From NCBI RefSeq assembly GCF_003334355.1, contig NZ_QOWP01000012.1: a stretch of 64,000 nt of DNA; one strand, 5' to 3'. The notes below the pieces were generated by a model. It was not told where the DNA came from. It did not search any database and worked only from the letters and a program-made list of their open reading frames with translations. A program made the translations under genes and the position numbers. Positions 18,986 through 25,494 of this stretch are shown here, piece by piece (positions within the stretch are counted from its first letter, which is position 1; every line of letters starts with the position of its first letter). Source of the stretch: Escherichia coli (GTDB lineage Bacteria > Pseudomonadota > Gammaproteobacteria > Enterobacterales > Enterobacteriaceae).

Positions 18986-19648
18986 TTAAATCGACGTTCT
19001 GCCAAACGCTCCCTGCCAGTCCTGCTCAAACTTCGCCACAGCGGCTTCCACCGCCGGATAGCTAATCATCTGTTGTGCCACATCCAGTGGCAGAGTAATT
19101 GATTCACATCCTGCCAGTAAGCAGTCCAGCGCCTGACGCGGGGTTTTGAAACTCGCTGCCAGCACTTTCGCCTGCGGCGCATGCATTTTCAATAACTGGT
19201 GTAAGTCGGTCACAGTCTGAATGCCGCTACCGCCCTGAGCATCAATACGATTAACGTAAGGCGCAACATATTCCGCACCTGCCAGCGCCGACAGCAGCCC
19301 TTGTGCTGCGCCATATACCGCGGTTCCCAGCGTTGGAATCCCTTCCGCTTTTAACATCTTAATAGCTGCCAGCCCCTCGGCGGTCACCGGAACTTTCACC
19401 ACGATATCCGCAATAATAGAACGCAATTTACGTGCGTCATTCACCATCCCTTCAGCAGTGGTAGCCATTACCTGGGCAAACAGACGCCCCTGACCGCCCA
19501 TCGCTTCATGAAGTTGCGGAAGCACAACATCCAGCGGTTTTTTACCCGCGGCGATAATGCTTGGGTTAGTGGTCACACCCGCCAGCGGAAAAATACGTGA
19601 CAGCGCCTTCACCGCAACAACGTCTGAAGTATCCAGATACAGTTCCAT
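18986..19648 (-). CDS. fsaA: Fructose-6-phosphate aldolase 1 (FsaA)
   Basis: ORF 18986..19720; start placed at [12 protein letters not shown]; 220 aa; transaldolase-like fold. Confidence 0.93.
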
Positions 19649-19778
19649 AACCATCCTCAAAATGTACTTTTTGTCTGAATGTAGACTATCACGGGAAAAC
19701 TCTCTGAACAGTTGACGCACATCAATCTAACTTTCATTCGAAAGTATTTTAATGCTTGAACGAAATAGAGAGGCAACT

Positions 19779-20678
19779 ATGATTTTCAATATTCAGCGCT
19801 ACTCGACCCATGATGGCCCCGGTATCCGCACGGTCGTATTTCTTAAAGGCTGTTCGCTGGGCTGCCGCTGGTGTCAGAACCCGGAAAGCCGCGCCCGCAC
19901 GCAGGATCTGCTGTATGACGCACGACTGTGTCTGGAAGGCTGCGAGCTGTGCGCTAAGGCCGCGCCGGAAGTGATTGAGCGCGCGCTGAATGGTTTGCTT
20001 ATTCATCGGGAAAAGTTAACCCCGGAGCATCTGACGGCGTTAACCGACTGCTGTCCGACACAGGCATTAACCGTGTGTGGTGAAGTGAAAAGCGTTGAGG
20101 AGATCATGACGACCGTTCTGCGCGATAAACCGTTTTACGATCGCAGCGGCGGCGGTTTAACGCTTTCGGGTGGTGAGCCCTTTATGCAGCCGGAAATGGC
20201 GATGGCGCTACTGCAAGCCAGCCACGAGGCAGGCATTCATACTGCGGTAGAAACCTGTCTGCATGTGCCGTGGAAATATATCGCCCCTTCTCTGCCCTAT
20301 ATCGATCTGTTTCTTGCCGATTTAAAACACGTTGCCGACGCGCCGTTTAAACAGTGGACCGACGGTAACGCCGCCAGAGTGCTGGATAACCTGAAAAAAC
20401 TCGCCGCAGCGGGCAAAAAAATCATTATCCGCGTGCCGCTGATTCAGGGCTTTAATGCCGACGAAACCTCTGTAAAAGCCATTACCGATTTTGCCGCCGA
20501 CGAGCTGCACGTTGGCGAAATTCATTTTCTGCCCTACCACACGCTGGGCATCAACAAATATCACTTACTTAATCTGCCCTATGACGCCCCGGAAAAACCG
20601 CTTGATGCGCCAGAACTGCTCGACTTTGCCCAGCAGTATGCCTGCCAGAAAGGGTTAACCGCGACCTTACGAGGATAA
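19779..20678 (+). CDS. ybiY: Glycyl-radical enzyme activating protein YbiY (PflE), radical SAM
   Basis: CxxxCxxC radical-SAM motif (CSLGCRWC) near the N-terminus; RBS gagagg 5 nt upstream of ATG 19779; alternative upstream ATG at 19752 lacks an RBS. Confidence 0.9.
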
Positions 20679-20683
20679 CAACC

Positions 20684-23116: not shown

Positions 23117-23261
23117 TCTCCTCGGCCCGGCGGCGTCGTCGCCGGGCTAAATCATTCACATCATCAATTTCATCCTTACTTTCATTCGAAATATAATTTG
23201 TGCTCTGCGTCACATTGTTATTACACTGTTACGGTTTCATTTTCGAGCCAGGAGCACACCT

Positions 23262-24077
23262 ATGAGCGTAAAAGTTATCGTCACAGACATGGACGGTACT
23301 TTTCTTAACGACGCCAAAACGTACAACCAACCACGTTTTATGGCGCAATATCAGGAACTGAAAAAGCGCGGCATTAAGTTCGTTGTTGCCAGCGGTAATC
23401 AGTATTACCAGCTTATTTCATTCTTTCCTGAGCTAAAGGATGAGATCTCTTTTGTCGCGGAAAACGGCGCACTGGTTTACGAACATGGCAAGCAGTTGTT
23501 CCACGGCGAACTAACCCGACATGAATCGCGGATTGTTATTGGCGAGTTGCTAAAAGATAAGCAACTCAATTTTGTCGCCTGCGGTCTGCAAAGTGCATAT
23601 GTCAGCGAAAATGCCCCCGAAGCATTTGTCGCACTGATGGCAAAACACTACCATCGCCTGAAACCTGTAAAAGATTATCAGGAGATTGACGACGTACTGT
23701 TCAAGTTTTCGCTCAACCTGCCGGATGAACAAATCCCGTTAGTGATCGACAAACTGCACGTAGCGCTCGATGGCATTATGAAACCCGTTACCAGTGGTTT
23801 TGGCTTTATCGACCTGATTATTCCCGGTCTACATAAAGCAAACGGTATTTCGCGGTTACTGAAACGCTGGGATCTGTCACCGCAAAATGTGGTAGCGATT
23901 GGCGACAGCGGTAACGATGCGGAGATGCTGAAAATGGCGCGTTATTCCTTTGCGATGGGCAATGCTGCGGAAAACATTAAACAAATCGCCCGTTACGCTA
24001 CCGATGATAATAATCATGAAGGCGCGCTGAATGTGATTCAGGCGGTGCTGGATAACACATCCCCTTTTAACAGCTGA
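23262..24077 (+). CDS. ybiV: Sugar phosphatase YbiV (Cof-type HAD hydrolase)
   Basis: 271-aa ORF; HAD motif I (DMDGT) at the N-terminus and GDSGND motif. Confidence 0.93.
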
Positions 24078-24228
24078 CCTCTCTACCGGAGCCGTGCGCT
24101 CCGGTTTTCCCTTCTTTTTACATCCTGTACATCACATCAAATCATTAAACTTGCATTAACTTATTTATAACTTATATTGTCACATGCAAATCAGAATGGT
24201 TTCGAATGAAAGTTAATGAGAGGTGGTT

Positions 24229-25494
24229 ATGGCTTCTACTTTTACCAGCGACACATTGCCTGCCGATCACAAAGCAGCTATCCGTCAGATGAAGCACGCG
24301 CTGCGGGCGCAGCTTGGCGACGTCCAGCAGATCTTTAATCAGCTAAGCGATGACATTGCCACGCGAGTGGCTGAAATCAACGCACTCAAAGCACAGGGCG
24401 ATGCCGTCTGGCCGGTGCTGTCTTATGCCGATATCAAAGCAGGTCATGTTACTGCAGAGCAGCGCGAACAGATTAAACGTCGCGGTTGTGCGGTGATAAA
24501 AGGCCATTTCCCCCGCGAACAAGCGCTAGGCTGGGATCAGTCGATGCTGGACTATCTGGACCGCAACCGCTTTGACGAGGTCTACAAAGGCCCCGGCGAT
24601 AATTTCTTCGGGACGCTCAGCGCTTCACGTCCCGAGATTTACCCCATCTACTGGTCGCAGGCGCAAATGCAGGCCCGCCAGAGTGAAGAAATGGCGAATG
24701 CGCAGTCGTTTCTCAATCGTCTGTGGACATTTGAAAGTGATGGAAAGCAATGGTTTAACCCGGATGTGAGCGTCATCTACCCTGACCGTATCCGCCGCCG
24801 TCCGCCCGGAACGACCTCCAAAGGTCTTGGAGCGCATACCGACTCCGGGGCACTGGAACGCTGGCTGCTTCCAGCGTATCAGCGCGTTTTCGCCAACGTC
24901 TTTAATGGCAATCTGGCGCAATATGATCCCTGGCATGCGGCACATCGTACGGAAGTTGAAGAGTACACGGTGGACAACACCACCAAATGTTCCGTGTTTC
25001 GGACATTCCAGGGCTGGACAGCGCTCTCTGATATGCTGCCTGGTCAGGGGCTGCTGCACGTCGTGCCCATTCCTGAAGCTATGGCGTACGTACTGTTACG
25101 TCCGCTGCTTGATGATGTGCCGGAGGATGAACTGTGCGGCGTAGCGCCCGGAAGAGTATTGCCGGTATCAGAGCAATGGCATCCACTGTTGATTGAGGCG
25201 TTAACCAGCATTCCAAAACTCGAAGCCGGAGACTCCGTCTGGTGGCACTGCGACGTCATCCATTCCGTTGCCCCCGTTGAAAATCAACAAGGTTGGGGCA
25301 ACGTGATGTACATTCCTGCGGCACCGATGTGCGAGAAAAATCTTGCCTACGCGCACAAGGTGAAGGCCGCACTGGAAAAAGGCGCATCGCCGGGCGACTT
25401 CCCGCGCGAGGACTATGAAACAAACTGGGAAGGACGCTTTACGCTTGCCGACCTCAACATTCACGGTAAGCGAGCGTTGGGCATGGATGTTTGA
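24229..25494 (+). CDS. ybiU: DUF1479-family protein YbiU (function unknown)
   Basis: ORF 24223..25494; start placed at MASTFTSDTL; 421 aa. Confidence 0.9.
   Translation: MASTFTSDTLPADHKAAIRQMKHALRAQLGDVQQIFNQLSDDIATRVAEINALKAQGDAVWPVLSYADIKAGHVTAEQREQIKRRGCAVIKGHFPREQALGWDQSMLDYLDRNRFDEVYKGPGDNFFGTLSASRPEIYPIYWSQAQMQARQSEEMANAQSFLNRLWTFESDGKQWFNPDVSVIYPDRIRRRPPGTTSKGLGAHTDSGALERWLLPAYQRVFANVFNGNLAQYDPWHAAHRTEVEEYTVDNTTKCSVFRTFQGWTALSDMLPGQGLLHVVPIPEAMAYVLLRPLLDDVPEDELCGVAPGRVLPVSEQWHPLLIEALTSIPKLEAGDSVWWHCDVIHSVAPVENQQGWGNVMYIPAAPMCEKNLAYAHKVKAALEKGASPGDFPREDYETNWEGRFTLADLNIHGKRALGMDV

Follow-up and report, generated by a model that had tools for sequence, protein, structure and literature searches.

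Escherichia coli has been reported to phosphorylate 1,5-anhydroglucitol through a phosphotransferase system (PTS) and to convert 1,5-anhydroglucitol-6-phosphate with YbiW to 1-deoxy-fructose-6-phosphate, a route that supports strictly anaerobic growth on 1,5-anhydroglucitol; PflD performs the equivalent cleavage of the mannitol epimer (PMC12441222, a 2025 review, citing Ma et al., JACS 2024, 146:26187). Here we describe positions 18986-25494 of a 64,000-nucleotide stretch of an E. coli contig (NZ_QOWP01000012.1; the whole stretch is referred to below as the window), which carry fsaA and, divergent from it, ybiY, ybiW, ybiV and ybiU. A first-pass annotation of the sequence had proposed that these genes form an anaerobic pathway, with YbiW dehydrating an anhydro or deoxy sugar phosphate to a product that FsaA then cleaves. 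The locus is very likely the E. coli "anhydroglycolysis" locus plus accessory genes. The finding is correct but not new: the core pathway and crystal structures were published in 2024, and the repressor in 2021 and 2025.

YbiW (ybiW, 20684-23116, plus strand, 810 aa) is a glycyl radical enzyme that matched TIGR01774 with 1411 bits (cut-off 678), and domains PF02901 (PFL-like) and PF01228 (glycine-radical) are recorded for a protein identical to it. The glycyl motif RVAGYSAFF, pointed out in the first-pass annotation, is present with its glycine at Gly786 and aligned to RVSGYAVRF of PflB. Gly440-Cys441-Ile442-Glu443 (GCIE) of YbiW aligned to Cys433/Glu435 of glycerol dehydratase, and His165 to His164. 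In the column of YbiW Gly-Cys441, PflB showed a Cys418-Cys419 dyad and no Glu. Because YbiW has the single Cys441 with Glu443, as in glycerol dehydratase, and no dyad as in PflB, its active site, judged from the aligned residues, is of the eliminase type and not of the formate-lyase type. PDB entries 8ID7 and 8YJN, both named "Probable dehydratase YbiW", matched YbiW from end to end (810 residues); the differences were three engineered Ala residues in the crystal construct and the natural substitution E184K. PDB entry 8YJO, "Probable dehydratase PflD", is a paralogue. In a homologue search with YbiW, the best 120 matches were all from Enterobacterales, with at least 86% identity. The partner gene ybiY (19779-20678, plus strand, 299 aa), whose stop codon lies 5 nt before the start of ybiW, encodes the radical S-adenosylmethionine (radical-SAM) activase of YbiW. 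YbiY matched TIGR02494 with 370 bits (cut-off 174) and carries the radical-SAM motif CX3CX2C at Cys25/29/32 and a second cluster motif at Cys51/55/58.

Database names lag behind these data: RefSeq and NCBIfam still label YbiW as generic or formate-lyase-type. The source names "putative pyruvate formate lyase" and "formate C-acetyltransferase", together with the PFL-type domains PF02901 and PF01228 shared with true formate-lyases, would make YbiW a pyruvate or 2-ketobutyrate formate-lyase. This is almost certainly wrong. The active-site comparison refuted it, YbiW was only 26% identical to PflB, and its score against TIGR01255 was 165 bits, compared with a cut-off of 994. The best solved relatives of YbiW are dehydratases or eliminases, and the substrate given in the review is a sugar phosphate. 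It is also highly improbable that YbiW is a glycerol or 1,2-propanediol dehydratase whose neighbouring genes are unrelated to it, even though these are the nearest solved enzymes of other function (E 1e-163 and 2e-151) and have the catalytic Cys, Glu and His in common with it. Asp447 of glycerol dehydratase, which we take to be a glycerol-binding residue, aligned to Gly456 of YbiW. No aldehyde dehydrogenase, reductase or microcompartment gene was present in the neighbourhood annotation; the conserved partners were an aldolase and a DeoR-type sugar-phosphate regulator, and the published substrate is 1,5-anhydroglucitol-6-phosphate (PMC12441222).

The aldolase partner is FsaA (fsaA, 18986-19648, minus strand, 220 aa by the RefSeq annotation; the mechanical open reading frame [ORF] extends to 19720), which matched NF009296 with 453 bits (cut-off 306) and TIGR00875 with 282 bits (cut-off 246). 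The neighbourhoods of 80 ybiW orthologues (85-99% protein identity), taken from different species of Enterobacterales, were analyzed for gene linkage; 78 of these loci had enough flanking sequence for fsaA. ybiY was directly 5′ of ybiW in 80/80 loci. fsaA was divergent from ybiY and at most 400 bp from it in 61 of the 78, including 19 loci without a detected moeB. It stayed with the cassette in foreign contexts that lacked moeAB, ybiV and ybiU, in Buttiauxella, Serratia, Brenneria, Pantoea, Atlantibacter, Siccibacter, Rouxiella and Mangrovibacter. Co-occurrence of ybiW with fsaA, put forward earlier as a check on the pathway, was thus found in unrelated genomic contexts as well. Neither of the two outcomes that the first-pass annotation had named as refuting the pathway, a formate-lyase active site in YbiW and a lack of co-occurrence with fsaA, was observed. 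The same parts (glycyl radical enzyme, activase, Fsa aldolase, GldA and PTS) are present in a paralogous locus of strain K-12, in which gldA-fsaB-ptsA is divergent from frwCB-pflD-pflC-frwD.

In the pathway established by others, 1,5-anhydroglucitol, a dietary sugar analogue, is taken up and phosphorylated by the PTS to the 6-phosphate. YbiY installs a glycyl radical on Gly786 of YbiW, which then opens the pyranose ether ring of 1,5-anhydroglucitol-6-phosphate to give 1-deoxy-fructose-6-phosphate. The chemistry of this step would resemble that of a diol dehydratase: the Cys441 thiyl would take a hydrogen from C2, the C1-O bond would be eliminated with the help of Glu443, and the hydrogen would be given back to C1. 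FsaA reportedly splits 1-deoxy-fructose-6-phosphate into glyceraldehyde-3-phosphate, which goes to glycolysis, and hydroxyacetone, which GldA, encoded elsewhere, reduces to 1,2-propanediol. The abstract of the original work reportedly describes these products, with FsaA or FsaB as the aldolase and GldA as the enzyme that yields 1,2-propanediol. The earlier proposal that FsaA cleaves the YbiW product was judged to be supported, the cleavage step itself being the one said to be in that abstract. The proposal that YbiW is an eliminase or dehydratase acting on an anhydro sugar phosphate matches the published substrate (PMC12441222). The label "under-characterised", which the first-pass annotation gave to the unit, is outdated for the core genes.

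Published data connect the locus with the DeoR-family regulator YciT. Gao et al. (2021) observed YciT peaks in chromatin immunoprecipitation with exonuclease treatment (ChIP-exo) at the fsaA/ybiY and ybiV/ybiU gaps. In their yciT deletion strain, the log2 changes in expression measured by RNA-seq were +7.7 for ybiY, +7.0 for ybiU, +3.5 for ybiW, +2.2 for ybiV and +1.8 for fsaA. According to the Reg-Seq preprint, the ybiYW promoter is active only anaerobically, and YciT was pulled down on it in DNA chromatography followed by mass spectrometry; YciT was called a repressor, and the footprint of an activator, which was not named, was also reported. In the window, the 14-mer ACTTTCATTCGAAA was found as an exact copy in three gaps, 5′ of ybiY, ybiV and ybiU, and a search of the rest of the 64-kb window revealed no further match even at 2 mismatches. 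Site 1 (ACTTTC-ATTC-GAAAGT, 19730-19745; 14-mer at 19730-19743), a probable YciT site, is in the fsaA/ybiY gap, 34-49 nt 5′ of the ybiY ATG. Site 2 (23178-23191, plus strand) is in the ybiW/ybiV gap. Site 3 (24200-24213, minus strand), an inverted copy, is 16-29 nt 5′ of the ybiU ATG. The operator is a palindrome of 12-16 bp with the core TTTCAT/TCGAAA; a 16-bp form is ACTTTCATTCGAAAGT, and TTTCATATGAAA is a perfectly palindromic variant. YciT, whose gene lies 480 kb away, represses fsaA, ybiYW, ybiV and ybiU.

The operator is conserved. It was present 5′ of ybiY within 2 mismatches, with its position kept, in about 78 of the 80 species loci, and the core TTTC-N4-GAAA was found in the upstream regions of ybiY (73/80), ybiV (53/55) and ybiU (50/53). 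It was also found 5′ of a relocated ybiU in Mangrovibacter (locus L078). Among 20 re-examined loci of clearly foreign context, 14 relocated loci from other species (~9 genera) had a yciT orthologue (58-81% identity) adjoining the cassette; the cassette-linked orthologue of Buttiauxella scored 478 bits against the NCBIfam YciT model (cut-off 450). An independent, weak YciT peak at ybiO was, after coordinate conversion, centred exactly on TTTCACCCGAAA, which has the same core. Neither the pflD/fsaB/gldA locus nor the surroundings of yciT yielded a convincing operator when searched; the sole match, with 2 mismatches, was between pdeR and rnb. Mlc/NagC, Cra, KdgR and TorR were considered as candidate owners of the operator and set aside in view of the YciT data. 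Sugar phosphates are the usual signals of DeoR-family regulators, and the inducer of YciT may be a sugar phosphate of the pathway, either anhydroglucitol-6-phosphate or 1-deoxy-fructose-6-phosphate.

Three other elements resemble the operator or coincide with YciT peaks. The glnQ/ybiO gap (37698-37729, ~100 nt 5′ of the ybiO ATG) holds a perfect palindrome with 10-bp arms, CCTCCCTTTC-ACCC-GAAAGGGAGG, whose centre is that of the YciT peak. The published YciT peak assigned to ompX (32250-32277, at the convergent opgE/ompX 3′ ends) contains TTTCGACCCGAAA, with operator half-sites and a 5-nt spacer. At 19755-19765, ~23 nt 3′ of site 1, the consensus of the 72 loci shows a further operator-like element, CTTCATACGAAAG, which is conserved in other genera and degenerate in E. 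coli (CTTGAACGAAA).

The three promoters differ in a further box. An FNR-like box, TTGACgcacATCAA (19712-19725), lies 5′ of ybiY, where an activator of the anaerobic ybiYW promoter may bind. TTGA-N6-TCAA was present 20 nt 5′ of the operator core in 63 of the 72 loci aligned, and 6 more had it with one mismatch; 23 different inner pentamers were observed. Such a box was found in 69/80 ybiY upstream regions, 0/55 of ybiV and 0/53 of ybiU. A -10-like hexamer, TTTAAT (19748-19753, plus strand), is conserved as TAATTTAAT in the 72-locus consensus, and transcription would start near 19760. With this hexamer as the -10 element, the FNR-like box is centred at -41.5, the class II FNR position, which suggests FNR as the missing anaerobic activator. 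We infer that the ybiYW promoter depends on FNR bound at a class II site, and that the YciT operator separates the FNR box from the -10 element. The Reg-Seq preprint gives footprints at "-5" and "-20"; the latter could correspond to the FNR-like box or to operator site 1.

In front of ybiV, a CRP-like box, TGTGCTCTGCGTCACA (23199-23214), lies 19 nt past the start of the operator core (23180) and ~63 nt 5′ of the ybiV ATG. TGTG-N8-CACA was found at a fixed offset of 18-19 nt in 41/55 ybiV upstream regions and was absent from the ybiY and ybiU regions; ybiV may thus use CRP. The region 5′ of ybiU has TGTA-N7-TCAA at 24126-24140. The pattern TGT[GA]-N7-TCAA, a hybrid of CRP/FNR-family type, was found in 27/53 ybiU upstream regions and in none of those of ybiY or ybiV. 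A scan for consensus promoters gave no more matches than shuffled sequence and was not used.

Several points weigh against this picture of the pathway and its control. fsaA was absent from the locus in 17 of the 78 species, mostly Klebsiella/Raoultella, in which moeB abuts ybiY, and also Salmonella diarizonae and Yersinia. The steps after YbiW, those of FsaA and GldA, are taken from what the abstract of the original work is said to state and from a one-sentence review summary. The assignments of FNR and CRP are suggested by consensus matches plus conservation, and a literature search revealed no paper naming ybiY together with FNR. The two strongest ChIP-exo peaks, at 19612-19639 (in the 5′ end of fsaA) and 24024-24057 (in the 3′ end of ybiV), missed the exact 14-mers by 112 and 165 nt, with the same direction of shift; a peak discrepancy of ~100 nt was also remarked on by the Reg-Seq authors in their preprint. 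There was no separate peak for the ybiW/ybiV site among the published YciT ChIP-exo peaks. Since the peaks are displaced from the 14-mers, the operator is assigned to YciT from its co-location with the regulated genes, from the peak at ybiO and from comparative genomics. The three-copy palindrome is probably the YciT binding site.

Two accessory genes follow ybiYW. ybiV (supH; 23262-24077, plus strand, 271 aa) encodes a Cof-type HAD-IIB sugar phosphatase that matched TIGR00099 with 221 bits (cut-off 137) and has VTDMDGT, with the DMDGT nucleophile motif, at its N-terminus. Its structure has been solved (PDB 1RLM, identical; 2HF2), and other groups have employed YbiV as a promiscuous phosphatase for hexose-6-phosphates. 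ybiU (24229-25494, plus strand, 421 aa) encodes a protein that matches Pfam PF07350, formerly DUF1479 and now "Gig2-like". The predicted structure of YbiU has the double-stranded beta-helix fold of an Fe(II)/2-oxoglutarate dioxygenase (PhyH-like). This model was built from a 37-sequence alignment (predicted local distance difference test score [pLDDT] 92); an earlier one from 10 close homologues (pLDDT 46) was discarded. Candidate residues for the His-x-Asp/Glu...His iron-binding triad are His203-Thr-Asp205, His340 and His345, given here as sequence positions only; each was conserved in at least 90% of homologues, whose identity to YbiU ranged from 27 to 85%. With such a fold, YbiU should need oxygen, though it belongs to an "anaerobic" regulon. 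In the aerobic yciT deletion strain of Gao et al. (2021), ybiU was the most expressed gene of the locus (baseMean 6488 vs 23 for ybiY); it was up ~130-fold (7 log2), second only to the change of ybiY, and the levels of ybiY and ybiW stayed low. The unit, earlier proposed as an anaerobic pathway, is not purely anaerobic, given the predicted fold of YbiU and the high aerobic level of ybiU. In Mangrovibacter and Rouxiella, a ybiU homologue was directly 5′ of yciT, beside the cassette, in two different arrangements. A literature search revealed no reported substrate for any Gig2-like/DUF1479 protein and no reported role for YbiV or YbiU in the YbiW/FsaA pathway.

ybiV and ybiU might be syntenic neighbours with no part in the YbiW/FsaA pathway. 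They follow ybiW essentially only in the moeAB...ybiT context and are absent from most relocated cassettes, and the lack of a role in the reports that we found is in line with this. We consider it unlikely. Each gene has its own operator copy, conserved at the frequencies given above, both were derepressed in the yciT deletion strain of Gao et al. (2021), and the ybiU homologues that adjoin yciT and the cassette in Mangrovibacter and Rouxiella, the former with an operator 5′ of it, argue in the same direction. A different objection concerns the regulon as a whole, which could be primarily an osmotic-stress response, the role suggested in the first characterisation of YciT: in Gao et al. (2021), the yciT deletion strain grew more slowly at 0.5 M NaCl, and one peak fell at ybiO, a mechanosensitive channel gene. 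It is, however, at the fsaA-ybiU locus that all the strongest peaks and largest expression changes occur, yciT adjoins the glycyl-radical cassette in the 14 loci of other species, and osmotic control could not be confirmed by Reg-Seq. An osmotic role as the primary one is very unlikely on these grounds, to which the usual signal of the DeoR family, a sugar phosphate, may be added.

A role of YbiV and YbiU within the anhydro-sugar regulon of YciT can be pictured as follows. The presence of an oxygen-requiring YbiU in the regulon of the oxygen-sensitive YbiW suggests a division of labour by oxygen regime, with YbiV and YbiU handling the same or a related metabolite when YbiW cannot work. Without oxygen, FNR and relief of repression by YciT would switch on YbiY/YbiW and FsaA, and 1,5-anhydroglucitol-6-phosphate would become glycolytic carbon. 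With oxygen, YbiW would be inactive, and YbiU would act oxidatively on that compound or on a closely related anhydro or deoxy sugar phosphate; the simplest reaction would be C1 hydroxylation of 1,5-anhydroglucitol-6-phosphate, giving glucose-6-phosphate directly. There is a precedent in Sinorhizobium, where 1,5-anhydromannitol is oxygenated at C1 to mannose. YbiV, as a promiscuous phosphatase, would act as a relief valve. The YciT regulon would then hold two oxygen-specific answers to one dead-end metabolite, YbiYW/FsaA without oxygen and YbiU with it. This is a tentative and rather doubtful proposal. It draws on the dioxygenase fold predicted for YbiU, the operator of ybiU with no FNR-like box beside it, the 130-fold increase of ybiU in the aerobic yciT deletion and the travelling of ybiU with yciT in rearranged loci.

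The order and orientation of the five genes given by the first-pass annotation agreed with the ORF list and the RefSeq annotation, and its family assignments for all five proteins were borne out by family-model matches. The start codons of fsaA, ybiY and ybiU fall within the longest ORFs. By the same annotation and ORF list, the locus is flanked by moeA-moeB on the fsaA side and by ybiT (minus strand) beyond ybiU. The 6509 bp of 18986-25494 were 99.83% identical to K-12 MG1655 (11 mismatches, 0 gaps). YbiW had one substitution (E184K) and FsaA two (218/220 identical) relative to K-12; YbiY, YbiV and YbiU were identical. At least 80% of a 9-kb query that includes the locus (18000-27000) was found in 5424 of 5426 complete E. 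coli genomes, and the 9-kb stretch around the locus was a 100% match to a human faecal isolate.

ybiV and ybiU do follow ybiYW in gene order, as noted earlier; they do not continue its operon. A GC-rich hairpin without a T-run (23124-23148, plus strand; RNA fold -22.5 kcal/mol) stands directly 3′ of the ybiW stop codon. A terminator-like hairpin, ACCGGAGCCGTGCGCTCCGGT, with a T-rich tail (24085-24120, plus strand; -14.5 kcal/mol), whose arms are conserved across genera, stands 3′ of ybiV. Because of these hairpins and their own operator copies, ybiV and ybiU are separate transcription units. No riboswitch or leader was found at the locus with Rfam at the gathering threshold; the only matches were to two "sRNA" families adjoining it, naRNA4 (18820-18897, minus strand, 80 bits) and ES036 (25611-25653, plus strand, 42 bits), which we take to be intergenic elements of repeat type derived from repetitive extragenic palindromic (REP) sequences. 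Since moeB and fsaA are 178 bp apart here, as against 75 bp in K-12, the naRNA4 element looks like an insertion relative to K-12.

Some YbiW homologues were found in unusual settings. An island of Rouxiella aceris (L063, 5074-19107) carries two yciT-like genes, ybiU, fsaA, ybiYW and a ROK-family kinase gene, together with genes for a GldA-like dehydrogenase (48% identity), a major facilitator superfamily (MFS) sugar transporter of the GluP/FucP type and PtsG. It is a nearly complete anhydro-sugar pathway with uptake that may be independent of the PTS. In Yersinia alsatica (L080, 7310-14134) and Y. frederiksenii (L081), ybiY-ybiW lies between sgrR (NCBIfam SgrR, 1051 bits) and a SetA/SetB-like sugar efflux gene, and fsaA, the YciT operator and the FNR-like box are all absent from these loci. 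Directly 3′ of the ybiW stop codon in Y. alsatica (L080, 12441-12563) there is a sub-threshold match to SgrS (26 bits, gathering threshold 37; E 2e-4) that ends in a hairpin and a T-run. The Yersinia glycyl-radical operon seems to be inserted into a glucose-phosphate-stress locus. In an NCBI protein of 1047 aa (P0157), HAD phosphatase domains are joined to a YbiW sequence that covers 92% of the query at 100% identity; a deletion or an assembly error in one strain has probably fused ybiW with ybiV.

The chemistry proposed in the first-pass annotation from the sequence alone was right, and the value of the present analysis in that respect is as a check on that reading, not as a discovery. What is new here is the operator and its conservation, the cassette-linked yciT genes, the FNR-like and CRP-like boxes and the predicted dioxygenase fold of YbiU. 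The operator in three copies with promoter-specific FNR-like or CRP-like boxes provides a concrete regulatory model and may identify the activator that Reg-Seq left unnamed. YbiU, long a "no information" gene of E. coli, is now tied by regulation, synteny and predicted fold to anhydro-sugar-phosphate metabolism, so the search for its substrate is narrowed to a handful of compounds. If the proposed division of labour by oxygen regime is true, it would give the Gig2-like/DUF1479 family its first function. 1,5-Anhydroglucitol-6-phosphate is the toxic metabolite in human neutropenia of G6PC3 deficiency and glycogen storage disease type Ib (GSD-Ib), which lends some applied interest to bacterial enzymes capable of removing it.

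The closest known system is the YbiW/YbiY-FsaA pathway of MG1655 described by Ma et al. (8ID7, 8YJN). It is the same locus, and its core shows no difference; ybiV, ybiU and the regulatory sites described here may go beyond what has been published for that pathway. The PflD/PflC-FsaB-GldA-Frw PTS locus, the branch for 1,5-anhydromannitol-6-phosphate (8YJO), likewise has an activase and an Fsa aldolase, and its PflD is 39% identical to YbiW, with GCVE in place of GCIE. It differs in having its own PTS genes, gldA and the AraC-type regulator gene yijO, and in lacking the YciT operator, a HAD phosphatase gene and a Gig2-like gene. YbiU resembles the PhyH-like dioxygenases, which include the sugar-modifying enzymes EvdO1, HygX, AviO1 and KanJ; however, it belongs to the separate Gig2-like (DUF1479) family and has an N-terminal helical extension of ~150 residues.

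YciT matches the families of the DeoR-type repressors AgaR, SrlR, GlpR, UlaR and DeoR (E 1e-20 to 1e-44), and like them it represses a catabolic cluster via multiple palindromic operators; unlike theirs, its gene in E. coli is unlinked to its main target. With the glycyl-radical eliminases, namely glycerol dehydratase of Clostridium butyricum (PDB 1R8W), propanediol dehydratase, CutC and HypD, YbiW has in common the fold, the glycyl loop, the single Cys with a Glu at +2 and a conserved His. Asp447 in the pocket of glycerol dehydratase is not conserved in YbiW. The chemistry is likely the same, a radical 1,2-elimination beside a hydroxyl group. The other eliminases lose water or an amine, whereas YbiW would expel the ether oxygen within the ring of a phosphorylated anhydro sugar, and the elimination would thus result in ring opening.

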